Shown here one piece after another: positions 2,640 through 18,652 of a stretch of 19,561 nt of DNA. The notes under the pieces were generated by a model. That model saw only the letters and a program-made list of their open reading frames with translations. It did no database searches and was not told where the DNA came from. A program made the position numbers and the translations under genes. Within the stretch, counting starts at the first letter, position 1, and every line of letters begins with the position of its first letter. Origin of the DNA: a virus (lineage: Duplodnaviria; Heunggongvirae; Uroviricota; Caudoviricetes); IMG/VR virus record IMGVR_UViG_2585427752_000010. The stretch is one strand, 5' to 3'.

Positions 2640-3070
2640 TGGAAAAGAAAAACCGCCCATTACAGGCGGCTAATTCAGATATTCGCGTATCTGATGTTAC
2701 GCCCCTGACAAAATCCCTTCAAGCACCAAAGCGCACACCGAAAAAGCATCGTGCCAGAGTCTATATGCTGCGTACTGGTATAGAGGGATGGACAGAAAAT
2801 GACATTCTTCGCTACTGCCGTCTGTCTTCTGGTCGTAACTATGCAACAGAGTTAGAACGCCAGCTTGGAATCACTCTGGAGCGTATCGACGAAAAGAATC
2901 CTGATGGTATCGGAACACACCTTCGCTACCGTTTCTCCTGCCGTGGTGATGTTCTGAAAGTGATCACTCATATTAACCATCTTGCGAACATAAATGATCA
3001 CAACGGACTTTCTCAGCAGGAAATTGCCGACATTCTGAAACTCTACCCGGACGCGTTTAACGCCGCCTAA
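2639..3070 (+). CDS. hypothetical protein
   Basis: 143-aa ORF translationally coupled to alpA; basic N-terminus; no recognisable motif. Confidence 0.7.
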   Translation: MEKKNRPLQAANSDIRVSDVTPLTKSLQAPKRTPKKHRARVYMLRTGIEGWTENDILRYCRLSSGRNYATELERQLGITLERIDEKNPDGIGTHLRYRFSCRGDVLKVITHINHLANINDHNGLSQQEIADILKLYPDAFNAA

Positions 3071-3916: not shown

Positions 3917-4091
3917 GCCAACAGGAACACCACAACCACAAAAACGCTACAAAGATGCCCACGGAGCACTCGTTACTGTCGAAAGCGTGTCTCACAACCG
4001 AGTGACGTTTTATCGCGACGGGTATCAATCGCCATGCGTACAACCGCTGGCGCGTTTCATGAAGGAGTTCGCGGAGGTTAACAAATGCTAA
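3909..4091 (+). CDS. small hypothetical protein (60 aa)
   Basis: ATG at 3909 overlaps the stop of the upstream gene; sequence MSKPTGTPQPQKRYKDAHGALVTVESVSHNRVTFYRDGYQSPCVQP... looks protein-like. The ORF track's 3822 start lies inside the upstream gene and was not used. Confidence 0.5.
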   Translation: MSKPTGTPQPQKRYKDAHGALVTVESVSHNRVTFYRDGYQSPCVQPLARFMKEFAEVNKC

Positions 4092-4522
4092 CCGTCCAGA
4101 AGAAGACATTTTCACTGGCTGGTATGTCGCCAAAATCCAGCAATATGACGGCAAAGTCAGGCATTAATACAGCAGATACAAGCAAAGTTTATCATTTGCT
4201 GGTGGTCGGAACGGATGCCTTAACCATATCAGAAATCTCGGGCGATGATATTAGCATTGAGAAGGTCAGCGGCTGCGCCAGAGAATTTCTGGTCGTAGAT
4301 GACCTGTTCTGCTCGCGTAGTGACTCCACAAAAACATTCGTCCACGCGCGTGACGTTAACGAAATGAGCGCGATGTACTGTGCTTCTGGTTCTTCCAATA
4401 GTGAGTTTTCGGAGTCCATAAAAAAGAGCTTGCCGTTATGCGGCAACACGGTTTATGGTTATAAGGCACCTCATAAAACGGGTGCCGGGTTTCGCAGCCC
4501 GGAAATGTACGAGGCGACACAT

Positions 4523-4544
4523 GACGCGCCGAGCGTCTTTTTTT
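4523..4544 (+). terminator. putative intrinsic terminator inside the ambiguous 4085-4746 region
   Basis: GACGC-gccga-GCGTC hairpin followed by TTTTTTT. Confidence 0.35.
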
Positions 4545-4746
4545 GTGCCGTTAGCCAGACTCACACTTTTTTCAGTGATGTGGTTATAATCCGCGTCGCT
4601 TGCAAAATTATGGTGGGCTGGACAGGGCAGCCGAAAGGCTGGCCGGTTTCCTTGTACGCCGGTACTGCGAACTCTGTTCAGTCCACCACCAGCGAGTTTC
4701 GCAGCTCCGGTGGTGGGAAGAATTCCCAGTACAAGGAGGCTGCCAC

Positions 4747-4941
4747 ATGCTGGCTACTACCCCTACCCAAAAACCGCAATTTATCTGGATTATCGCCGCA
4801 GTTCGCCGCGATTGCCCGACAATTACCGCCAAAATTCATCATATTGCTGCCGAGTCTGAACGCGATGCTCGCCGTTCTCTGGTGCGCGATCACGTCTGCT
4901 TTTTTGCTGGTCGTATCCGCATGGAGGTGGCACATGATTAA
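4747..4941 (+). CDS. small hypothetical protein (64 aa)
   Basis: ATG at 4747 preceded by AGGAGG with 7-nt spacing; product MLATTPTQKPQFIWIIAAVRRD... is charged and protein-like; stop overlaps the next start. Confidence 0.5.
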   Translation: MLATTPTQKPQFIWIIAAVRRDCPTITAKIHHIAAESERDARRSLVRDHVCFFAGRIRMEVAHD

Positions 4942-5152
4942 AACCTACGATGTGCATATGGATCCCCTCGAACGCACAAGCCAGATCATCACACTGACAG
5001 AAGTGATTAATGACATTCTGGTGAGCAACTCTCCCTCACGAGACGAAAAACTGAAGGCGTTACTCGCGATATTGGATCTCGCCGTTCGTGACGTTCATTT
5101 CCTGCTGGAAGGTGGACAAATGCCATGCAAAACGGGGGCAACCAATGAATAA
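4934..5152 (+). CDS. small hypothetical protein (72 aa)
   Basis: ATG at 4934 preceded by GGAGG; product MIKTYDVHMDPLERTSQIITLTEV... is protein-like; it is the in-frame 3' portion of the long 4085..5152 ORF. Confidence 0.55.
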   Translation: MIKTYDVHMDPLERTSQIITLTEVINDILVSNSPSRDEKLKALLAILDLAVRDVHFLLEGGQMPCKTGATNE

Positions 5153-6764: not shown

Positions 6765-7128
6765 AAATGCAGAAATGGCGCTTAGCTCCGCAATCGGAGA
6801 GCAGGTGGCAAAGATTGCTGGTGCTGTGTGGATTCATAACCTTCATTCTACTGGTGAAGAGAAAATGGCAATTCAGACGCCAGAGGGACGCACCATTACT
6901 ACATCTCTGAAGCCGTCAGATGTTTGTGATCTGATTTGCGCATTCATGTACCCAGCAATGAGGACTGTCCACGGCGATAAGTGGAAACTTGCGACAACCG
7001 CTGAATTTGATATGTGGCTAAACAATGATGGCATGCTGACTGATTACGGAATAACCAAGTGGCAGATGCTGGTTAGCCATATCGCAAACGCTATAGACCA
7101 CGTGGGGTACGGTGATGCGAAACATTGA
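6757..7128 (+). CDS. hypothetical protein (123 aa)
   Basis: ATG at 6757 with GGAGG RBS; 3' end overlaps the primase start. Confidence 0.7.
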   Translation: MRENAEMALSSAIGEQVAKIAGAVWIHNLHSTGEEKMAIQTPEGRTITTSLKPSDVCDLICAFMYPAMRTVHGDKWKLATTAEFDMWLNNDGMLTDYGITKWQMLVSHIANAIDHVGYGDAKH

Positions 7129-9466
7129 TCTTATCCGTCAGGTTATCAGTGCGTCTGAAAACAACTGGCCTCATGTGCTGGGCTGCCTGAACATAAATGT
7201 CCCTGACTCTCCGCGCCGTCATGCTCCCTGCCCTGCATGTGGGGGCAAAGATCGATTCCGGTTCGATGACAACGGGCGCGGTAGCTTCATCTGTAATCAG
7301 TGCGGCGCTGGTGATGGGCTGGATTTAATTAAACGCGTAAATAACTGCGACACAACAGAGGCGGCGCTTCTTGCCGCTGATGTTCTGGGTATTGATTACC
7401 GGACAACGGAAACACCAGAAGCCACCAGCCAGAAACGGGAACAACTGGAAACCGAGCGCCAGCGACGCGAACAGGAGCGCCTGAAAAGGGCAGAGAAGGA
7501 CGAACAACAAAGACGGGATACGTTTTCCCGTCAGTTTGATGACATGCGCAGAAAGGCTGTAAACGGCAAATCTGATTATCTGGTTGCGAAAGGGGTAGGT
7601 GATTTTACATTCCCCGTGTTGCCCGATGGATCTCTGTTGCTGGCGCTGGTGGATAAATCCGGCGCAGTCACAGCAGCACAGACTATTACCTCACATGGTG
7701 AAAAAAGACTCCTGACAGGTTCGGCAAAGCGGGGGGCATATCACGCCATAAACGCACAGAAACGACCTCACAGCATCATAATTGCTGAGGGGGTGGCTAC
7801 CGCCCTGTCGTGCCATTTAATTCGCCCTGACGCAATGACAGTGGCAGCAATCGACGCTGGCAACCTGTTGCCAGTAGCGGAAGTCATGCGCAGAACATAT
7901 CCGCAGGCACAAATAATCATTGCTGCAGATAACGATCACCAGCAAGGAGACTCAGAAAGTGGAGGGATCAACACGGGGAAAGATGCCGCAGAGAGGGCCG
8001 CTATTTCCGTAGCTGGCAGGGTGTCTCTGCCACCGACTGACTATAAAGCCGACTGGAACGACTATCACCAACAACACGGGCTGGCGGCAGCCACAGCAGC
8101 ATTTAAAGATTCGATGTACCAGCCACGGGGGAAAGGGGCGCAGGTGAAAAATCACAAACAGTCAGTCGGGGCGCTGAATGAGATCAGTTCTGGCGAGGTG
8201 TTAAGCGATGATGAAATTGCTGTCCTCGAAGAAATCAACCGGACGTTTACGCATGTCACCATCGGCGGGAAACACAAGGTGGGGTCGCTAAAGCCTTCTC
8301 AAACCGGCGGTGTATCGCACGTTTTCGAGGATTTATCACAATTTCAGCATTATTTTCATCATAAACCGAGAGTCGCCAGAAAGCTGGCGGGATCGGCGTG
8401 GCTGTCATGGAGTGGGAAGAACTACAAGCCAGGAGGCGTAGGATTTTATCCAGTACCAGACAAATGCCCTGACGATGTTTTTAATCTGTATGAGGGGCTG
8501 GCACTGGAACCAATTGAAGGAGATTGCACGGTATACCTTAATCACCTGTTGCAGGTTGTCTGTGCCGGTAATGAAGAGGCATACCAATATCTTATCCAGT
8601 GGATGGCGCACATTATCCAAAAGCCTGATGAAAAACCGTCCGTGGCAATCGTGATGAAATCTGTCCCGGGCACAGGGAAAGGCACAACGGTTAAACCGCT
8701 GCTGCAAATACTGGGGCAGTACGCCGCCCACATTAACGGGGCGGGACATATTTCAGGGCGCTTCAATTCAATACTTGCTAACAAGCTACTGGTATTTGCT
8801 GACGAAGTGACGATCCACAAGCCGTCTGAAGCTGACAGACTTAAAGCGATTATTAGCGAACCGACGTTTAACCTTGAGCGCAAGGGAATTGATGCTGAAC
8901 CAATGCCGAATTTTGCCCGGTTGATATTTGCCAGTAACAGCACACAGGTATTACAGGCAGGGATAAGAGAGCGTCGCTATCTCGTGCTTGAGCCATCTCC
9001 TGAAAAAGCACAGAGCCGGGAGTATTTTGATCGGCTGTACAGTTGGCTTAATGATGGCGGTGCCGCAAAGTTGCTTTGGCATCTTAAAGGGGTGGATCTC
9101 TCAGGTTTTGACCCTCAACGAGCGCCACAGACCGATGCCTTACGTGAAGAAATCTTGCTGGGGCTGTCTGGCGTTGAATTGTTTCTTTATGGCGAGCTAA
9201 TCAATGAACCTCCGTTTAATGGCGAAGTCCGTTTGTTTGCAAAGGATATGGTTAGTCGGTTTGTAGCGTGGTCGCTTGAGCGTGGGGAAAAGCTTAAAGA
9301 ACCAGCTGCCAGATCACTACTGGGTAAATCACTTGCACAAATGGGGCTGGTGAAGCATGGAAGACCAGACCGAGGGAATGGCGTGTTCTACGAACTACCA
9401 GAGGTCGGAGTTCTACAGGCTGCGTTTGCCCGTCTGATCGGTATGGGGGGTTATGATGTTTTTTAA
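7112..9466 (+). CDS. P4-alpha-like bifunctional primase-helicase
   Basis: 784 aa; N-terminal zinc ribbon CPACGG...CNQCG; TOPRIM-like motifs IIIAEGVATA and IIAADNDH; C-terminal P-loop NTPase region with Walker A-like PGTGKGTT and Walker B-like LLVFADEV. Start may be GTG 7112 or ATG 7115. Confidence 0.9.
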   Translation: MMRNIDLIRQVISASENNWPHVLGCLNINVPDSPRRHAPCPACGGKDRFRFDDNGRGSFICNQCGAGDGLDLIKRVNNCDTTEAALLAADVLGIDYRTTETPEATSQKREQLETERQRREQERLKRAEKDEQQRRDTFSRQFDDMRRKAVNGKSDYLVAKGVGDFTFPVLPDGSLLLALVDKSGAVTAAQTITSHGEKRLLTGSAKRGAYHAINAQKRPHSIIIAEGVATALSCHLIRPDAMTVAAIDAGNLLPVAEVMRRTYPQAQIIIAADNDHQQGDSESGGINTGKDAAERAAISVAGRVSLPPTDYKADWNDYHQQHGLAAATAAFKDSMYQPRGKGAQVKNHKQSVGALNEISSGEVLSDDEIAVLEEINRTFTHVTIGGKHKVGSLKPSQTGGVSHVFEDLSQFQHYFHHKPRVARKLAGSAWLSWSGKNYKPGGVGFYPVPDKCPDDVFNLYEGLALEPIEGDCTVYLNHLLQVVCAGNEEAYQYLIQWMAHIIQKPDEKPSVAIVMKSVPGTGKGTTVKPLLQILGQYAAHINGAGHISGRFNSILANKLLVFADEVTIHKPSEADRLKAIISEPTFNLERKGIDAEPMPNFARLIFASNSTQVLQAGIRERRYLVLEPSPEKAQSREYFDRLYSWLNDGGAAKLLWHLKGVDLSGFDPQRAPQTDALREEILLGLSGVELFLYGELINEPPFNGEVRLFAKDMVSRFVAWSLERGEKLKEPAARSLLGKSLAQMGLVKHGRPDRGNGVFYELPEVGVLQAAFARLIGMGGYDVF

Positions 9467-9495
9467 TATAGTCTTTTTACAAGAAGATCGTTTTT

Positions 9496-9600
9496 ACCTG
9501 TACCACCTATACCACTTTGCTAATTCAGCATTAAAAACAATGTGTTATAGTGGTACAGGTCAATATCTTACCTATACCAGACCTGTACCACCTATACCAT
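9496..9600. repeat. iteron cluster 1 (putative origin-type repeats) just downstream of the primase
   Basis: ACCTGTACCACCTATACCA at 9496-9514 and 9581-9599, inverted partial copy GTGGTACAGGT at 9550-9560, and partial copy CCTATACCAG at 9571-9580. Confidence 0.6.
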
Positions 9601-9642
9601 TAACAAACGCATTTCTTCTGGCTGGCTGAGAGGGAACAACCA

Positions 9643-9873
9643 ATGATGAGCACACCATTTTACAAAGTGCGCCAGTTAGCTTCTTCCTCTGGCTGGCAGC
9701 TACGGTTTGAGGGGCGTTCAGACTGGCTACCCATTGCGGCATGGGCGAATGTTGAAATGTGTATTGACGGCGATACCGTTGAAATCATTATTCCCTGCGT
9801 GGCAAGTCGGGACGGCTGTATAGAGCCAACAGATATGGCAGCAGAAATCAGAGAGGTAAAACATGAGCAATAA
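9643..9873 (+). CDS. hypothetical protein (76 aa)
   Basis: ATG at 9643 preceded by GAGAGGGAA; stop overlaps the next gene's start. Confidence 0.6.
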   Translation: MMSTPFYKVRQLASSSGWQLRFEGRSDWLPIAAWANVEMCIDGDTVEIIIPCVASRDGCIEPTDMAAEIREVKHEQ

Positions 9874-10600
9874 CTATTGCATACCGCAGGGAATGACCAG
9901 AACGGAGCGCGAAGAATTAAAAAGTTTCGCTACACAGTGCGGGAATGCTGGCGACATCCAAAGTCTGGAACGCACTTTAATTATGATTGCGCACTGGATG
10001 CGTCAGGGGCAAAGGGTTTCATTTACTGAATATGCCAGCCAGTGGACAGAGGCACAGCGCGAACGGAGCGACGGTAATCACTCAACACCCGAAATGGCGA
10101 AGCAATGGCCTTTCAGTGGTAAACGCTGTATCAGTCCCGGTGGTTCAGATTATTACCCTGCTGGTGTGGGAGATGAGCCATGTTGTGACGAGACTGAAAT
10201 CCGCCACGCAGTGACAGTAATTACCGCTGAATACCCACAATTTAACCTTGACGGACTGGCGCTCCACAACCGGAATGCGGACTGGGAAAACCCGCTTGAT
10301 AACCCGTCATTTATCGTATCGGCGAAAAGCTGCCTGAGATGGATCAGAGACAACGGGATGAGTAATGCCCAGATTGAGAGCTTCCCGCAGGATAACCCCA
10401 CATCTGACACGTTGAAGCATGAAGTGGAGCGATATAACCAGATAAACCACCAGCACAGTGATCACCCGCACTATATCCCCAACGGAGCATTTATTGCGGC
10501 GATGGTGGCAAGCGGCTACAAGGTTAAGCCAGCGGGAAGAATGAACGCATTTTTCAATATTTCAAAAAAGGGATTATGTGCTGCTATGGGTAAAAATTAA
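9863..10600 (+). CDS. hypothetical protein (245 aa)
   Basis: ATG at 9863 preceded by GAGAGG; Cys- and His-containing product with no motif recognisable by eye. Confidence 0.7.
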   Translation: MSNNYCIPQGMTRTEREELKSFATQCGNAGDIQSLERTLIMIAHWMRQGQRVSFTEYASQWTEAQRERSDGNHSTPEMAKQWPFSGKRCISPGGSDYYPAGVGDEPCCDETEIRHAVTVITAEYPQFNLDGLALHNRNADWENPLDNPSFIVSAKSCLRWIRDNGMSNAQIESFPQDNPTSDTLKHEVERYNQINHQHSDHPHYIPNGAFIAAMVASGYKVKPAGRMNAFFNISKKGLCAAMGKN

Positions 10601-10709: not shown

Positions 10710-11074
10710 CAAAAACAGCGATTTTCTTTATAAGGTATGTTTTGCTCATCTGGCAGACGGAGGTATTCGCTGCGGTTTGGCACATAGCCCAGAACAGCAA
10801 AGAGTTTTACGAGACTTTTGTAAAATCCAGTGTACAAGGGCGTGACGTTTTTGAAGGAGAGACCTACGAAATTTTCGTAGTTCAAAAAATAGCCTCTGAG
10901 ATGTTGTTATGCCTGTTCAGCAAACCATCCGCATAGCTGATCGCGAATCAAATTACCAATGGAGCCAGAAGCAAGGGCAGAACTGGAAAGCGCCTGCCGT
11001 GAAGAGTAATGCGACATCGTAAATATAGTTTTTAGAGTCCATAAAAAAACTGTCAAAACCTGACATACAGAACG

Positions 11075-11108
11075 ATGCCACCAGCTACTGAGCGGTGGCA
11101 TTTTTTTG
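11075..11108 (+). terminator. rho-independent terminator
   Basis: ATGCCACC / GGTGGCAT perfect 8-bp stem with 11-nt loop, followed by TTTTTTT. Confidence 0.65.
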
Positions 11109-11169
11109 TGCTATTTGTTTCATATTTTGCAATTACGATGATGAATATTGCGATTTGTGAAACTATAAT

Positions 11170-11189
11170 AACTGTTGTTTTATACAGTT
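11170..11189 (+). promoter_or_regulatory. LexA-box-like site (CTGT-N8-ACAG) between a TATAAT element and the operon's first RBS
   Basis: AACTGTTGTTTTATACAGTT: CTGT at 11172-11175, 8-nt AT-rich spacer, ACAG at 11184-11187; a consensus -10 TATAAT lies at 11164-11169 and the RBS AAGGGGG at 11192-11198. Confidence 0.4.
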
Positions 11190-11202
11190 CTAAGGGGGCG
11201 TT

Positions 11203-11364
11203 ATGGCTATTTCAGTAAAGCCGGTATTGATAAGTGAGAAGCAAATGGAAGCGATAAAGAAAATTCAGGAAGAGCAGCGTAAAAAATCAGGAATTGGAGT
11301 AGCGCCAACTCTGCATGAAATTGCTCGAGGGTTAATAGATAAGGCGCTGGCAGGCTGTATGTGA
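11203..11364 (+). CDS. small DNA-binding-like protein (possible ribbon-helix-helix), 53 aa
   Basis: Not in the ORF track (below its size cutoff). ATG at 11203 with strong RBS TAAGGGGGCG; product MAISVKPVLISEKQMEAIKKIQEEQRKKSGIGVAPTLHEIARGLIDKALAGCM has a strand-helix-helix-like pattern. Confidence 0.45.
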   Translation: MAISVKPVLISEKQMEAIKKIQEEQRKKSGIGVAPTLHEIARGLIDKALAGCM

Positions 11365-11380
11365 AAATGGATGGCATCGC

Positions 11381-11842
11381 ATGGAACTAAAATTTATTGA
11401 TAACCCTGTGCGATTACAGGCCTTTCTTAACGATCCTGGCAATACCGAAAATATTGTTGAGCCGGGGCACACGTACTACATCAAGCCTGATGCGGTATAT
11501 CTCGGCATCTACGAAGGATTGGTGCTGGCTGGCGTTCATGAAGTGCGTAACTTCTGGCATAGCATTGTTGAATGCCATGCGGTGTACGACCCCGGATTCC
11601 GTGGTGAATATGCACTGCAAGGGCATCGATTATTCTGCAAATGGCTTCTCGAAAACTCACCATTCCTTAACAGCATCACTATGGTTCCTGACACCACGAA
11701 ATACGGACGGGCAATTATCCGTTTGCTTGGCGCTACCCGTGTTGGTCACCTTGATGATGCTTATATCAGATGTGGTAAACCCGTCGGCGTAACGCTTTAT
11801 CAGTTAACTCGGCAACAATATAAGGAATTCAGCGAATGTTAA
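11381..11842 (+). CDS. hypothetical protein (153 aa), second gene of the operon
   Basis: ORF starting 17 nt after the small gene; stop overlaps the next start (ATGTTAA). Confidence 0.75.
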   Translation: MELKFIDNPVRLQAFLNDPGNTENIVEPGHTYYIKPDAVYLGIYEGLVLAGVHEVRNFWHSIVECHAVYDPGFRGEYALQGHRLFCKWLLENSPFLNSITMVPDTTKYGRAIIRLLGATRVGHLDDAYIRCGKPVGVTLYQLTRQQYKEFSEC

Positions 11843-12513
11843 TTACCCATATAGCTCATAAACATCTCAATCGTGCCGTATACGAAAAAGGCGGTGATGG
11901 TGGTGCCTCTAAAGCTCAGGCGAAGGCCCAGCAGCAGGCAATTGATTTGCAGCGCGAGCAGTGGAATACGGTGATGAATAATCTCAAGCCGTATGCAGAA
12001 GTCGGATTGCCTGCTTTACAACAACTACAAGGACTGATGACTCTGGAAGGGCAGAATAAAGCCGCGAATGATTTCTTTGGTTCTGGTTTATATAAAACAC
12101 AGGCAGATCAGGCCCGTTATCAGAACCTTGTCTCAGCAGAAGCTACCGGGGGGCTTGGCTCAACAGCTACCAGTAACCAGTTATCTTCCATTGCGCCCAT
12201 GCTTTATAACAATTGGCTTAGTGGGCAAATGCAAAATTATGGAAACCTGCTAAATGTCGGGATGAATGCGGCATCAGGACAGGCAACGGCAGGGCAAAAC
12301 TACGCCAATAATACCGGACAACTCTTGCAGGGGCTTGGCGCTATTCGTGCAGGTCAGGCGCAGCAGCCATCCAGTCTTGCGCGTGGTATTGGTGGGGCAG
12401 CATCAGGCGCTTTAGCGGGTGCGCAACTTGGTTCCGTTGTTCCTGGAATAGGTACTGCGGCAGGCGCTATTGGTGGTGGGCTTATTGGTCTTGTTGGGGG
12501 GCTTGGATTCTAA
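11836..12513 (+). CDS. Gly/Ala/Gln-rich protein with C-terminal glycine-zipper hydrophobic segment (225 aa)
   Basis: AAGGAA RBS; low-complexity Q/A/G/N-rich body; C-terminus GIGGAASGALAGAQLGSVVPGIGTAAGAIGGGLIGLVGGLGF has repeated GxxxG spacing typical of membrane-inserting glycine zippers. Confidence 0.75.
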   Translation: MLITHIAHKHLNRAVYEKGGDGGASKAQAKAQQQAIDLQREQWNTVMNNLKPYAEVGLPALQQLQGLMTLEGQNKAANDFFGSGLYKTQADQARYQNLVSAEATGGLGSTATSNQLSSIAPMLYNNWLSGQMQNYGNLLNVGMNAASGQATAGQNYANNTGQLLQGLGAIRAGQAQQPSSLARGIGGAASGALAGAQLGSVVPGIGTAAGAIGGGLIGLVGGLGF

Positions 12514-13826
12514 TGGCGACATGGCAACTTGGCGGGCTGCCTAGCATGGCACCGCAAAATGATAATGCTCCTCGTTCTTCCGTTCCTCAGCCTGTGCAGT
12601 ATCAGCAGCAGCCAAACGTAGGTTTAATGGCGCTACAGGGGCTAAGAGGCGTTGCTGAGATTAATCAGCAGGCGCAAATTTCCCAGCAGCTAAAAGAATA
12701 TCAGGCACGGTTGGGTAGTGCGGTAGCTAATAATGATCGTGTTGGCGTGCAGAAGTTAATGGCCCAGTATCCCCAGTTTATGGCTGATTCTCAAAAACAG
12801 ATGGGATTCATTGATGCTGAGCAAAATCGGCAGACCGCTGACGCTGCCATGAATCTGCGTCTTGCGTCACAAACTGGAGATCCACTGACCATGCAGAAGG
12901 CCATTCAGCAGGCAAATCCAGTATTACAGCGATTTGGTCTTCCTGCTGAAGAGGTTTATCAGTCTTGGCAGAATGACCCACAGGAATTCAACAGAATCAC
13001 TGACCTCATCCACCTCCATGCTGATCCAAATAGTTACTTTAGTGTTCAAGAGAAGCAGCAAGGGCAGAGTATTGCACAGCAGAACGCAGATACATCTGCA
13101 TATAATGCTCAGGTTAATGCGGAACAGGGTAATCGGCGTCTCGATATGGAGCAGTTCAAAGCCCTATCCGATAACCAGCTACGCACGAGAGAAATGGTTC
13201 TGAAAGCACGACTTGGACGTGCTCAAAATGACATCGAGAGAGACAAGCTCAATGCTGAACTGAGCAAGGTACAGCAGGCGAAAGTGGAGAAGATGAACGA
13301 TAAAATTAATACTGTTGTAGGTAACATCGACTCCTTGAACTCTGCGCTTGAAGTGGGTCATGAACTGGCGGGAATTGTAGGGAAACATCCTTCGGCCGTT
13401 ACCCGTTCGCAGAACTATAACCCCCTGACGCTGGGGTTTGGATTCCTTCCTGATGTAGCAGAAGACACACGAAGCCTACGCGCCAAAGCTGATGAATACA
13501 ACCTAAAGGTTATTCTGCCTAGCCTCAAAGGGACTTTTGGCTCTAACCCAACCGAAGGGGAAAGGGCTGCCCTTATGCAATCTCAAAATGGCATTAAGTC
13601 AGCAACCAGCAATGAGGCATTTTTGCGAGAGTTGAATAAAGCGCAGGACGTAATTATTCGAATGCAGAAACGACAGATTGCCGGGCTCGGTATTCCTGTA
13701 ACCAAATCTAAGGACGAAGAAACTGATACCAAAATGCTGTTGCAGGATCCTTCTCTGGTTAAGGATTATGTGACCGCACATGGCTATCTGCCGGAAAGTT
13801 ACTATCAGGCAAAACTTAAGGGATAG
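12513..13826 (+). CDS. Gln-rich, probably coiled-coil protein (437 aa)
   Basis: ATG overlaps the upstream stop (TAATG); Q-rich N-terminal half and charged, heptad-like central region. Confidence 0.8.
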   Translation: MATWQLGGLPSMAPQNDNAPRSSVPQPVQYQQQPNVGLMALQGLRGVAEINQQAQISQQLKEYQARLGSAVANNDRVGVQKLMAQYPQFMADSQKQMGFIDAEQNRQTADAAMNLRLASQTGDPLTMQKAIQQANPVLQRFGLPAEEVYQSWQNDPQEFNRITDLIHLHADPNSYFSVQEKQQGQSIAQQNADTSAYNAQVNAEQGNRRLDMEQFKALSDNQLRTREMVLKARLGRAQNDIERDKLNAELSKVQQAKVEKMNDKINTVVGNIDSLNSALEVGHELAGIVGKHPSAVTRSQNYNPLTLGFGFLPDVAEDTRSLRAKADEYNLKVILPSLKGTFGSNPTEGERAALMQSQNGIKSATSNEAFLRELNKAQDVIIRMQKRQIAGLGIPVTKSKDEETDTKMLLQDPSLVKDYVTAHGYLPESYYQAKLKG

Positions 13827-13828
13827 CA

Positions 13829-16549
13829 ATGATGGCACAACTGACAGAAAAACAGAAAGCCTATTCCCGTCATCTCGATGAAAAATATGGTTTCCCATCA
13901 GGGACGATGGAAACATTAGTTGGCAATGAATCTAGTGGTAACGGAAGTGCCGAGTCACCGAAAGGAGCTAGAGGATTTGCTCAACTGATGCCCTCAGTAA
14001 TGAGTGATGCTGGTTATCGTGGAACAGATCCGCGCTCACTGCCATTTGAAAAGCAAATGGATATCGCAGCAAACCATCTCAATAAAGGAATGAAGCGATT
14101 TGGTGATATAGGTATGGCATTGGCTGGGTATAATTCTGGCTATGCTCGTATTAATGCCGTAAGAAACGGTAAATCTACACTGCCAGATGAAACGGCTAAT
14201 TACGTAAGTAAATTTGCAGATGCCGGAATAATCCCTGATGACAGTGAAATCTTGCAGTTTGCACAAACCAGTCAACATCGCAATCTTCAGCAGCCTGACT
14301 ACTCAGAGCTTGATAAAGAAATCTCTCAGGTGGGAGATATTTCTGCATGGGAAGCAAAACGTCAGCAATTTAAGAACATAGAAGCAGGACTACCAACAGC
14401 CAGTTCATGGGAGCAGAAAAGAGCTCAGTTTCTCGCCGATGAAAATGCCGGGGAACCGCAGCAGCAAGTAGCCAAGTCTAACCTTAATCCTGAGATGGAA
14501 TATCTTTCGCCAGGACTGAAAGCTGCGCCAGAGCAGATGGCCAGAGGGATTGCTAATATACCGTTTGATGTAATGGACGCAGGCGTGGGGGTAGTCAATG
14601 CGGCGCAATCAGCCGGAGCATGGGCAGCTCAGAAGCTTGGTGTGGGTGATGGCACATACACGCCCATATCACCTGTCTTTCGCCCAGTAGACCAACCTAC
14701 AGATCCATACGCGCAGGCTGGTGAGCAGCTAGCACCTTACCTTATTACAGGATTAGGTGCAGGAAAGGCAGCTACCGCAGCTTCTTCAGTTGCCAACGCT
14801 CCACGTGCTGAACGTGCGGCCACAAAGGTGGCTAGTATGTTGGCAGAAAACCTGCCAGGTACATTGGTGAACGCCCAAAAGAACGGGCAGATCAGCCCAG
14901 AAGACCTAGCAAAAGAGACAGGTATTGGCCTAGCAGGATCGCTAGGAGCACGCGCTTTAATAAAGAGCGGACAGACAGCCAGTGACGTAATGCGAGATGT
15001 ATTGCGGAGTAATACAAATCAATCAGGCCATGTGTTAGGGGCAGCAAATACTCTGGAAACCGCCAATGATGTATCGAAAGCAGCGCGTTCTGCCGTAGGC
15101 CGAGAGCATATCGCATCGCAGGCATCAAACGTCAGAGATGATGTCGCTAAGGCGGCGAAAATTACTGGTATTAATATCAACACCCTGACGCCTGGAATGC
15201 GCTCAGGTAGTCGTGGAATTGCCCAAGCAGAAGGTGTTCTGGCATCAACTCCTGGGAATGTTCAGGATGCTCACCTTACGGCCTTCAATGAAATATCCTC
15301 AAAGTTGAATAAGCAGTTGTCTGATTTCGGTGCTGAGTCTGGAAGCGCATCAGAAAAAAGCGCAGCAATTAAAGAGCGCATCATCGCGAGCCTCAGTGAT
15401 ATGAAAACAGCAGAGAATATGGCATGGGCAGAACTGCGAAGCACGATGCCACGCGAAAGGATGAAAATGAGTAATGGGATGGCTGTCGTCCAAGCAGAAA
15501 AAGCAGCCAATGTTCCACTCAGCCCGGAGATGAAACAGTTTCAGGCTGCCAACAACCAAGGTGGCGGCATAACCTTCGACGGGATGAAGGCATGGCGTGC
15601 TAAGTTTGCTGATGCTGAACAAGCAAACACCCGGGCAGGTAAGGCCAATGCCGCCCGGATTGCCGGAGAAATGCGCAGAGCTATCACTGATGACATGCGC
15701 ATCATGGCTGAAAAAGGAAACTTCCTCACAGAATGGCAGAAAGCTAACGATCTCTCTAAAAGTTACATTATCGCCAAACAAAATGCCGAATCTGTTTTTG
15801 GTCGAGATCTCGCATCAGACGCTATGGTAAGAAAAGGTGCCGATACGCTTAAGGCATCCGCAAACACTGGAACGGGAGCTTTTCACCGTCTTATCTCCGC
15901 GCTGCCGGAAGCAGAACGCCAACCAGCAATAGCATCTATTCTTCAGCATGCTGTGGCGCAGGGAGAGAAGGGAGGAATCGGTGAAGAATCTGGTATCCAG
16001 TATTTTGCCAAGCTCATGACCCAGCAGAATGTAAACGCCATCAGTCGTCATGCGCCAGATCTCGGTAGAATGATGAAAGAGTTCGGTGTACTCGCTAAAG
16101 CCAGCACCAGACCGCAGCGATACGTAGAGCGCACGGGAAGAACAACTGAGGCTCTCAAAACGCTCGATTCAGGCCTTCCAAAGATCGTCGGCGTGATTAT
16201 GAACGGAGTTCAACAGTCAGGTGCGATCGCTGGAGGCTTTGGCGGTGGTGTAATTGGTTCGATTAGTGGTTTGGTTGCTGGTGGCGCGCTGAGAAATACT
16301 GTGGCTAAGATTGGGGCGACAAGAAGTGGTAGATATGCGATAGAGAAAGCCGTTCAGGAAGCTACAAAAGCAGTGCGCGCAGGGGCATCACCAGCAGCGA
16401 TCGCCGCAGCAGAGAAACGATTTTCGGCCAATAAAATTGCCATGAAAGCAATTCGTGATGCCGTTGGGGCTGAAGAATTCGTGAAACTGACAAGGGCCGG
16501 GATTGTAGCTACCCTCAGTGGCATGAAAGATGTTAGCGAATGGGAATAG
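13829..16549 (+). CDS. large protein with N-terminal lytic transglycosylase (SLT) domain and C-terminal Gly-rich hydrophobic segment (906 aa)
   Basis: N-terminal NESSGNGSAESPKGARGFAQLMP fits the SLT catalytic ES...GA.G..QLMP pattern and ALAGYNSGYARI fits the AYN.G motif; long Ala-rich body; near the C-terminus GGFGGGVIGSISGLVAGGAL. Confidence 0.85.
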   Translation: MMAQLTEKQKAYSRHLDEKYGFPSGTMETLVGNESSGNGSAESPKGARGFAQLMPSVMSDAGYRGTDPRSLPFEKQMDIAANHLNKGMKRFGDIGMALAGYNSGYARINAVRNGKSTLPDETANYVSKFADAGIIPDDSEILQFAQTSQHRNLQQPDYSELDKEISQVGDISAWEAKRQQFKNIEAGLPTASSWEQKRAQFLADENAGEPQQQVAKSNLNPEMEYLSPGLKAAPEQMARGIANIPFDVMDAGVGVVNAAQSAGAWAAQKLGVGDGTYTPISPVFRPVDQPTDPYAQAGEQLAPYLITGLGAGKAATAASSVANAPRAERAATKVASMLAENLPGTLVNAQKNGQISPEDLAKETGIGLAGSLGARALIKSGQTASDVMRDVLRSNTNQSGHVLGAANTLETANDVSKAARSAVGREHIASQASNVRDDVAKAAKITGININTLTPGMRSGSRGIAQAEGVLASTPGNVQDAHLTAFNEISSKLNKQLSDFGAESGSASEKSAAIKERIIASLSDMKTAENMAWAELRSTMPRERMKMSNGMAVVQAEKAANVPLSPEMKQFQAANNQGGGITFDGMKAWRAKFADAEQANTRAGKANAARIAGEMRRAITDDMRIMAEKGNFLTEWQKANDLSKSYIIAKQNAESVFGRDLASDAMVRKGADTLKASANTGTGAFHRLISALPEAERQPAIASILQHAVAQGEKGGIGEESGIQYFAKLMTQQNVNAISRHAPDLGRMMKEFGVLAKASTRPQRYVERTGRTTEALKTLDSGLPKIVGVIMNGVQQSGAIAGGFGGGVIGSISGLVAGGALRNTVAKIGATRSGRYAIEKAVQEATKAVRAGASPAAIAAAEKRFSANKIAMKAIRDAVGAEEFVKLTRAGIVATLSGMKDVSEWE

Positions 16550-18196: not shown

Positions 18197-18652
18197 TTAT
18201 ACGCTGACCTTACAATCAATCACCGCTTTTAACTTTTCAGCATTGCTTCCCTGACGCTTCCACGCGCTGTAAATATCTTTATCCCACGCTTTACCAGCTT
18301 TTGTTTGATAGCCTGCTTCATTGATCCGTTCAGCTATCACACGCCCATTATCAAATCCCTGTTGGATGGTATCGGCAATGATCTTTATAACTGCCGTTTC
18401 GTTATATGGCTTTGGTGGGATGTTCGGCTTTCCGGCAATAAGCGACGCAGCGGCTTTTTCCATGCGCTCCACCAGCCCAAGCATTCGTGAATCAATAGAC
18501 TTTTCCGGCTGTCTCAGCTTCATGCGAATCGCATCAACAAGCCAGGAGGTTTTATCCCCTCCAGAAGCGAGAACAGACCGATTAAACTCATCCTGCAATT
18601 CAGATGGGATGCGGAACGCGACCAGATTAGATTTGCTCATTGCAAAGACCAT
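18197..18652 (-). CDS. RHH-like DNA-binding protein (151 aa, or 147 aa from the alternative start at 18640)
   Basis: N-terminus SNLVAFRIPSELQDEFNRSVLASGGDKTSWLVDAIRMKL has a strand-helix-helix pattern; no clear SD for either candidate start. Confidence 0.65.
   Translation of the reverse strand: MVFAMSKSNLVAFRIPSELQDEFNRSVLASGGDKTSWLVDAIRMKLRQPEKSIDSRMLGLVERMEKAAASLIAGKPNIPPKPYNETAVIKIIADTIQQGFDNGRVIAERINEAGYQTKAGKAWDKDIYSAWKRQGSNAEKLKAVIDCKVSV

Follow-up and report, generated by a model that had tools for sequence, protein, structure and literature searches.

A small gene leading the DNA-delivery operon of an EcCIMP1-like PICI encodes a conserved 53-aa protein, a candidate autorepressor

The stretch of viral DNA analyzed in this study (IMG/VR record IMGVR_UViG_2585427752_000010; 19,561 nucleotides, hereafter the window) represents an integrative island carrying genes for an integrase (positions 1–1260), an excisionase/AlpA-type HTH protein (2436–2639), AntA, Ash, a primase featuring Zn-ribbon, Toprim, and DUF5906 parts (7112–9466), and a PerC/ANR-like protein at its right end. 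Rfam comparison revealed the int-alpA RNA in the window, and in E. coli 042 the same island is flanked by yicC and dinD. Gram-negative PICIs are recognized as islands of about 10–20 kb that encode an integrase, an AlpA-type regulator, and a primase/replicase, lack capsid and lysis genes, and are moved by a helper phage; the island was classified as an EcCIMP1-like PICI, mobilization being presumed for this particular copy. EcCIMP1 of E. coli MP1 shares the architecture int, alpA, antA, ash, primase, and PerC with the window, but the window island differs in the allele of its primase (784 aa, DUF5906) and contains one further ORF of 245 aa. Helper-dependent excision and transfer of EcCIMP1 by the P22-like phage Kapi1 were demonstrated experimentally (Pick et al. 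2025, PMC11773190). The region between 1.395 and 1.44 Mb of CFT073, which was inspected for EcCICFT073, turned out to be a lambdoid prophage.

Downstream of the primase gene, an operon begins with a short gene and comprises the following features:

11192–11198, plus strand: Shine–Dalgarno (SD) sequence AAGGGGG, with the ATG 4 nt downstream and an unstructured leader
11203–11364, plus strand: 53-aa protein-coding gene, 53 codons from ATG to TGA, product WP_001018524.1
11381–11842, plus strand: P22 gp14-like gene (DUF2824; PF11039, E-value 7e-62), second gene of the operon
11836–12513, plus strand: gene for a P22 gp7-like ejection protein (PF25688, E-value 7e-73)
12513–13826, plus strand: gene for a P22 gp20-like ejection protein, an injectosome translocase (PF16928, E-value 4e-22)
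13829–16549, plus strand: last gene of the operon, encoding a protein in the gp16 position that bears a lytic transglycosylase domain at its N-terminus (SLT, E-value 1e-12)

The presence of a short, real ORF at 11203–11364, as originally predicted, was confirmed by its coordinates and its conservation; the translated product is MAISVKPVLISEKQMEAIKKIQEEQRKKSGIGVAPTLHEIARGLIDKALAGCM. An identical protein is encoded at the same position in EcCIMP1, where it is followed by DUF2824, gp7, gp20, and SLT genes. A length of 53 codons alone is not beyond chance, because the same 2-kb stretch is overlapped by 25 ORFs with 30 aa or more. The duplex formed by AAGGGGG with the 16S 3′ end was calculated at −11.1 kcal/mol, the best value among the 18 genes tested, which agrees with the expectation of one of the strongest ribosome-binding sites in the window; the pairing ranks in the top 0.3% of window positions. 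No structure was predicted for the leader (fold z-score +1.1), and the SD sequences of the orthologues read CAGGGGGTG or CAGGAGGTG.

Comparison with 18 orthologues from other genera yielded saturated synonymous differences (pS 0.70–0.97) and pN values between 0.07 and 0.37, and the dN/dS ratios of 0.03–0.21, obtained for the pairs where they were computable, indicate strong purifying selection. The reading frame, whose lack of conservation in homologous islands had been named as an argument against the gene, was found to be the sole stop-free frame across all 18–19 orthologues. The frames of an antisense ORF at 11207–11377 are interrupted by stop codons in the orthologues. Strong frame conservation and low dN/dS ratios therefore identify 11203–11364, on comparative evidence, as a genuine protein-coding gene. 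Its earlier description as unannotated is correct for the ORF track used at that time alone; RefSeq/PGAP annotates the identical protein, WP_001018524.1, as “hypothetical protein” in E. coli 042, MP1, and others.

The module consisting of the promoter and the small gene was found in 501 out of 5,426 complete E. coli genomes (approximately 9%), and the gene was labelled “hypothetical protein” in 30 out of 30 records among the matches listed. A second allele, WP_001018522.1 (57 aa), heads an operon of gp20 and gp16 only. Close homologues with 64–98% identity are encoded in Citrobacter, Serratia, Klebsiella, and Salmonella, and scans of genomes and viromes extended the family to Leclercia, Cedecea, Raoultella, Pantoea, Erwinia, Rahnella, Pectobacterium, Lonsdalea, and others. 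An exhaustive profile search resulted in 60 family clusters at 50% identity, nearly all of them comprising proteins of 50–90 aa. Conserved within the family are a basic N-terminal arm, [KR]-P-V-L-L, Q14, I21-Q22, S29, and G32, followed by P35-[ST], representing a helix cap, A41-R42 with R42 being invariant, and L49. Scans of the small protein and of 37 relatives against Pfam, NCBIfam, and PHROG returned no family match at E-values up to 10, and no RNA family was assigned to the locus by Rfam.

In PICI-like loci, the small gene follows the primase gene, often also a PerC-like gene, and always leads the next operon, whereas the genes on both sides of the module differ among loci. Usually, it overlaps the next start codon (TAATG or TGATG), pointing to translational coupling. 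The downstream cargo comprises P22 gp14/7/20/16 in E. coli and Leclercia, and gp20/gp16 in Serratia, whose orthologue of the gp16-position protein showed a faint Phage_P22_gp16 match besides. Other loci encode T7_gp14 and an SLT protein (L010), an SLT protein (L011), a 108-aa protein followed by a TMP_3/HK97 tape measure protein (L015 and the Pantoea and Erwinia loci), or a Dit-like protein, a gp41 hub, and a gpV spike with an Apex motif (L016). Homologues featuring only 30–45% identity also retain the arrangement as leader of the operon.

Just upstream of the small gene, the following elements were found:

11074–11107, plus strand: intrinsic terminator, a GC-rich hairpin with a run of seven T (ΔG −17.9 kcal/mol, z-score −3.46 versus shuffles)
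11118–11132, plus strand: distal 15-bp dyad box TTTCATATTTTGCAA, consensus TTKCA-N5-TGMAA, centred at approximately −51
11148–11162, plus strand: proximal 15-bp dyad box TTGCGATTTGTGAAA, one mismatch to the consensus, centred at approximately −21
11164–11169, plus strand: perfect −10 hexamer TATAAT, retained by almost every one of 19 diverse loci
11170–11189, plus strand: candidate LexA box AACTGTTGTTTTATACAGTT, directly after the −10 hexamer and overlapping the inferred transcription start

The small gene stands first in the operon, with a strong terminator and a dedicated promoter directly in front of it, and its earlier placement as operon leader was borne out. The terminator is predicted to insulate the operon against upstream transcription, and equivalent hairpins and T-runs lie upstream in the Leclercia, Pantoea, and Erwinia loci. 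A generic promoter scan missed the promoter because of its weak −35 element (three out of six matches). The transcription start is predicted to lie near 11176, and the box centres given above refer to this position. The proximal box ends 1 nt upstream of the −10 hexamer. The near-inverted repeat reported earlier was recovered at the positions given for it, TTGCAAT at 11127–11133 and ATTGCGA at 11147–11153, and its two arms represent the inner half-sites of the distal and the proximal box, respectively.

To compare the promoters, the 130 nt upstream of 19 diverse orthologues were aligned, and 70 distinct modules from 88 loci were then examined. A recurrent layout was observed, in which two TTKCA-N5-TGMAA dyads precede TATAAT, a short leader, and a strong SD sequence. 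At least two dyad boxes with one mismatch or less each were present in 54 out of the 70 modules; among these 54, a distance of exactly 30 bp separates the box starts in 46 modules, and a proximal box ending 1 nt before the −10 hexamer was seen in 53. The half-sites within each dyad are spaced by 10 bp and occur in all four pairings (TTTCA or TTGCA on the left with TGAAA or TGCAA on the right), and each box is therefore a genuine dyad that would fit a symmetric oligomer; on the same ground, a reading of the boxes as directly repeated asymmetric units was set aside. Within each island (12–33 kb), the exact dyad motif is essentially confined to the promoter of the small gene, which suits a dedicated local regulator. 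The helper phage Kapi1 contains a single match at chance level and no paired boxes, and targets in the helper were therefore rejected as an explanation for the boxes. Sites for CRP, FNR, ArgR, Cra, TyrR, PurR, P22 c2, and lambda CII, compared by eye, were likewise dismissed for misfits in half-site sequence or orientation. No informative covariation was seen between box sequence and protein sequence. With its centre at approximately −21, the proximal box would occupy a classic repressor position.

The sequence CTGT-N8-ACAG occurs once in the window, at 11170–11189, and this site represents a good LexA-box match by sequence, being a 20-bp box of the TACTG(TA)5CAGTA type at the promoter and start as described for the LexA regulon. 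A position weight matrix derived from 19 E. coli LexA sites (training scores between 12.9 and 27.2) assigned 19.3 bits to AACTGTTGTTTTATACAGTT, compared with 8.6 for the next-best site of the window, and recovered the dinD promoter box in L001, which served as a control, with a score of 24.5. In orthologous promoters, scores of 21.5 (Serratia) and 13.7 (Leclercia) were obtained, and 24 out of the 70 modules reached at least 12.9. Klebsiella-type modules feature CTG-N9-CAG instead, with the spacing reduced by one base and a poor LexA score. Operon I of the staphylococcal pathogenicity islands (SaPIs), the counterpart by position of the present operon among Gram-positive PICIs, is under LexA control (Ubeda et al. 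2007, as cited in PMC6092414), and SOS regulation of an operon in this place therefore has a precedent. Both are satellite operons placed after the replication module, encoding proteins that exploit the helper virion and featuring a LexA box in the promoter. However, the SaPI operon belongs to another phylum, differs in gene content, and provides capsid-size and terminase functions, whereas ejection, tape-measure, and spike proteins are encoded here, and the paired non-LexA dyads and the conserved small leader gene were found in the present operons.

The suggested RHH-like pattern of the small protein is compatible with its predicted topology. Structure prediction by AF2, based on an alignment of 37 sequences (pLDDT 92, pTM 0.71), yielded an extended segment (residues 1–11), a helix (12–28), an eight-residue loop, and a second helix (37–52), an arrangement compatible with the order of strand, helix A, short loop, and helix B in RHH domains of about 45–55 residues. 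This model replaced an earlier one built from 13 sequences, which reached a pLDDT of 75 and gave meaningless Foldseek matches. No strand is assigned in the model, as expected because a monomer was modelled and the RHH ribbon forms between molecules. The loop between the helices exceeds the classic G-x-S/T/N turn of RHH proteins in length.

Membership in the RHH superfamily was not established by the comparisons. None of the RHH Pfam families (RHH_1, RHH_3, RHH_5, Arc, MetJ, CopG, and similar) matched any of 37 family members at E-values up to 10. Sequence searches of the PDB returned no match, and its profile searches yielded no RHH chain at the same limit. Foldseek searches against the PDB placed the RHH domain of PrpA (7ycv_B; TM-score 0.54, rmsd 3.1 Å, E-value 8.2) and TraM-N (TM-score 0.49) among the matches, none of them being significant. 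In BFVD, an unnamed protein ranked highest (probability 0.85, TM-score 0.75, E-value 0.8), and a CopG-annotated repressor (probability 0.77, TM-score 0.65, E-value 1.2), an archaeal-virus regulator, a “Repressor”, and SeqA-N were also among the top matches; every E-value in the two databases was at least 0.8 and none fell below 0.001. Alignments by hhalign with CopG, P22 Arc, and Kapi1 Arc remained below 1% probability throughout (0.15–0.2% for Arc); at this probability, the strand end and helix A fall in an equivalent register in the alignments with CopG and P22 Arc. No relationship to the island’s own YlcI-like 151-aa protein was detected by hhalign. The putative strand, VKPVLI, contains three consecutive hydrophobic residues and a single conserved polar/basic residue, a composition that appears unusual for a DNA-reading ribbon. 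The predicted topology is thus compatible with an RHH fold, whereas membership is not demonstrated.

The explanation that we tentatively prefer, giving it somewhat less than an even chance, is that the small protein acts as an Arc/CopG-style autorepressor of its operon, to which LexA would add a further lock in some members of the family. It is proposed because the module travels intact, the dyad motif is unique to this promoter, one dyad lies in the promoter spacer, and the protein is small, with a basic arm and two helices. The unit conserved in its travels consists of the terminator, the two dyads, the −10 hexamer, the strong SD sequence, and the small gene. As the first cistron of the DNA-delivery operon of the island (gp14, gp7, gp20, and gp16), the gene would encode a dimeric DNA-binding protein with an RHH-like fold, and we infer that this protein dimerizes, binds the dyads, and represses. 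The predicted dimer would occupy both dyads (11118–11132 and 11148–11162), and since the proximal one fills the spacer between the weak −35 element and the −10 hexamer, its occupation would block RNA polymerase. Autorepression of the operon would result, comparable to that exerted by P22 Arc at Pant and by CopG at Pcr. In the lineage comprising E. coli, Serratia, and Leclercia, host LexA may form the second lock at the start site and couple expression of the operon to the SOS response, by which the helper prophage is likewise induced. Such autorepression would gate a potentially harmful operon encoding membrane- and murein-active proteins.

The parallel to P22 Arc extends over several features. 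Both proteins comprise 53 aa, are encoded by the first cistron of their operon (arc-ant in P22), and have the order strand/arm, helix, helix, which is predicted in the case of the small protein; the candidate operator lies between −35 and −10 in both, implying autoregulation. A P22-like setting is also common to both, and the helper Kapi1 has its own Arc and Mnt. However, no sequence relationship between the two proteins is detectable, Arc binds a single 21-bp operator instead of two 15-bp dyads 30 bp apart, and the putative strand of the small protein, whose DNA binding is predicted, is far more hydrophobic. CopG of pMV158 and RHH antitoxin domains such as that of PrpA (PDB 7ycv) are small first-gene autorepressors acting on pseudo-symmetric promoter elements, as proposed here, and they are among the nearest RHH-annotated structural matches, albeit not significant ones. 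The operon studied here differs from theirs by encoding virion proteins as cargo and no toxin or replication-initiator partner.

The main alternative, which we regard as rather unlikely, is a function of the small gene outside regulation, with which its position would also be consistent. At all loci examined, genes for DNA-delivery proteins follow it immediately and are translationally coupled to it, and its very strong SD sequence suggests an abundant product. The small protein might accordingly be a dedicated partner (a chaperone, an assembly factor, or an inhibitor) of the downstream envelope-penetrating virion proteins, which it would hold in a soluble or inactive state before their loading into helper particles, with another factor binding the dyads. 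In two metagenomic podophage contigs (L034 and L035), a divergent homologue is located within the structural cluster, between internal-virion proteins and the SLT protein that it directly precedes, the dyad boxes are absent, and the SD sequence is sequestered by a hairpin; such a placement connects the family with ejection proteins instead of PICI regulation. The acidic C-terminal tails ending in EEE, which are present in one subfamily, also speak for a partner. However, the cargo proteins are unrelated in sequence and architecture, being of podo-, sipho-, and myo-type, and it is difficult to envisage how one 53-aa partner could serve them all. In Kapi1, where the small gene is absent upstream of gene 14, the same P22-type ejection proteins are assembled without it. 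Moreover, tblastn searches of 50,697 phage genomes with the window protein and a divergent homologue gave no homologue, and the promoter boxes and the protein together are the best-conserved parts of the module.

A regulator other than the small protein may act at the promoter, which could be AlpA loaded at the spacer, LexA by itself, or some host factor, while the small protein acts elsewhere, for example in helper-phage interference or as a LexA co-factor. For such roles, models exist: gp7 of Bacillus phage GIL01 is a LexA co-factor of approximately 50 aa, and the Pseudomonas aeruginosa antiterminator AlpA binds promoter DNA adjoining the −10 element. The weak −35 element fits the need for an activator, and a good LexA box is present. 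Furthermore, AlpA is the master activator of Gram-negative PICIs (PMC6092414) and is required for the mobilization of EcCIMP1 (PMC11773190). Yet AlpA activates its own promoter, and no dyad box was found upstream of alpA in the window or elsewhere in full-length islands, on which ground the boxes were rejected as AlpA sites. Most factors act as repressors from a site centred at approximately −21, lineages that have lost the LexA spacing (CTG-N9-CAG) still possess the gene family and the boxes, and paired boxes are missing from Kapi1, so that we consider another regulator quite improbable. Far more improbable is the antitoxin-like or immunity partner of the original prediction, that is, a type II antitoxin or immunity protein neutralizing the product of the next gene (gp14/DUF2824) in the manner of RHH-GNAT pairs. 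A small upstream gene with an RHH-like topology would suit this role, and the next gene in the divergent locus L036 encodes a GNAT acetyltransferase. However, the next gene differs by locus (gp14-like, gp20, 108-aa protein with tape measure, Dit, and others), these neighbours being variable virion proteins and no recognized toxin, and comparisons with the PDB and by BLASTP tied the gp14 of the window neither to GNAT proteins nor to the GNAT protein of L036, leaving a GNAT-type toxin without support. In addition, the small protein ends one residue past helix B at 53 aa, and there is no C-terminal extension offering room for a toxin-neutralizing domain.

A broader form of the preferred autorepressor explanation, somewhat unlikely as it stands, would see in the small protein, together with its two-dyad promoter and in some cases a LexA box, a universal control cassette of the PICI DNA-delivery module. 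The protein would then found a new family of two-helix repressors, and the cassette would time the replacement of the helper’s injection machinery or provide entry exclusion against the helper. No description was found, in the literature examined, of a module by which enterobacterial PICIs bring helper-matched DNA-delivery proteins of their own (P22 ejection proteins, T7-type core proteins, tape measures, or baseplate hub and spike). The existence of the small gene is already public, its function, promoter architecture, and LexA box being undescribed as far as the literature examined shows. The paper on EcCIMP1 (PMC11773190) discusses neither the small gene nor its promoter, nor any LexA box.

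Relatives of the small protein are distributed over the Enterobacterales, for example in Klebsiella, Serratia, Pantoea, Pectobacterium, and Rahnella. If the preferred explanation is true, the small protein would join the well-known small autoregulatory repressors and define a DNA-binding family missed by current profile libraries, and one 53-aa protein, two 15-bp sites, and a LexA box would offer a simple handle on satellites. These satellites are unusual, since they encode proteins that leave the virion together with the DNA. If the small protein instead proved to be a chaperone, it would represent an accessory factor common to phage penetration proteins that have no other relationship. More interesting than the protein itself may be its context, a widespread PICI lineage carrying helper-matched DNA-delivery proteins behind one conserved control cassette.

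The PICI also occurs as L089 (NZ_LT599831.1, 19,226 bp, 'phage_14408_2'), a separate record in the assembly of E. coli NRZ14408 that represents the island in circular permutation, with both record ends falling within the injection-protein gene. Since a chromosomal copy (H15) is also present in this strain, an excised or replicating form of the PICI in the NRZ14408 culture is suggested.

Within the window, Rfam searches identified the following RNAs:

1269-1335, int-alpA RNA, in the gap separating int from the following ORF
4466-4543, isrK antisense RNA, within the 'ash family' ORF region
4606-4693, C4 antisense RNA, within the 'ash family' ORF region

The location of the isrK and C4 RNAs inside the region of the 355-aa 'ash family' ORF (4085-5152) suggests an antisense-RNA immunity system of the P1/P4 type, with the long 'ash' ORF possibly being an over-call. 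In the leader of alpA, the PICI master regulator gene, an 8-bp inverted repeat (CCCGTAAC...GTTACGGG, 2378-2428) lies right before the start codon and may form a regulatory hairpin or serve as a site for protein binding. A 151-aa protein, encoded here on the minus strand (18197-18652), is conserved in many related islands, where its gene likewise occupies the right end. Its N-terminus (SNLVAFRIPSELQDEFNRSV...) resembles a classical RHH, its match to YlcI/YnfO_N was weak (E 0.053), and it may provide the PICI with a second regulator of the RHH type.

The replication module at 7112-10600 comprises a DUF5906-type primase of 784 aa and an additional 245-aa ORF (9863-10600) that matches no family. 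The related islands of E. coli strains 042 and MP1 instead encode a 918-aa TOPRIM/DUF927 primase and lack a counterpart of the 245-aa ORF, indicating that the replication module has been exchanged beside the conserved leader module.

Noncoding elements were also found around the 53-aa leader gene and its homologues. The motif ATAGTTTTTAGAGTCCATAAAAA, conserved in the E. coli and Serratia islands (window 11021-11047; Serratia island L005, 9733-9757), is positioned immediately 5' of the terminator, is not overlapped by any conserved ORF in these islands, and could represent a pac site or a binding site of another kind. In the upstream regions of the homologue loci L002, L011-L015, L018, L020, L021, L024, and L025, GATC-containing repeats (CGATCnnnnCGATC or aaCGATCGAA) occur in pairs at approximately -70 to -95 from the ATG, just 5' of the distal dyad, and the -35 region frequently contains GATC as well (tGATCAttt). 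These elements, which are absent from the window's own leader-gene promoter, are possible sites of Dam methylation or of an additional regulator.

In one metagenomic element, L032, the small gene is present as two paralogues (2878-3060 and 7465-7665). Each comes with a separate terminator, dyad box, and CTGT...CAG leader, and a LexA-like box (19.1 bits) accompanies the second. In both podophage contigs, a conserved 110-nt gap (L034, 5889-6001; L035, 6646-6757) precedes the homologue. Within this gap, the SD is sequestered by a perfect hairpin (CTTTCCTCCTG...CAGGAGGAAAG), and a conserved element, AAGTGCCCAGTAAATAG, is a possible promoter for a phage RNAP.

Across Enterobacterales, this PICI lineage encodes virion proteins that exit with the DNA, downstream of the same leader gene; the literature searched yielded no account of ejection or tape-measure modules encoded by satellites. 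The cargo, surveyed in the window (11381-16549) and at L005, L010, L015, L016, L011, L031, and L032, included P22 gp14/7/20/16, T7_gp14 with SLT, a tape measure protein with a chaperone, and Dit, hub, and gpV spike proteins. The cargo sets of these PICIs correspond to differing helper morphotypes.
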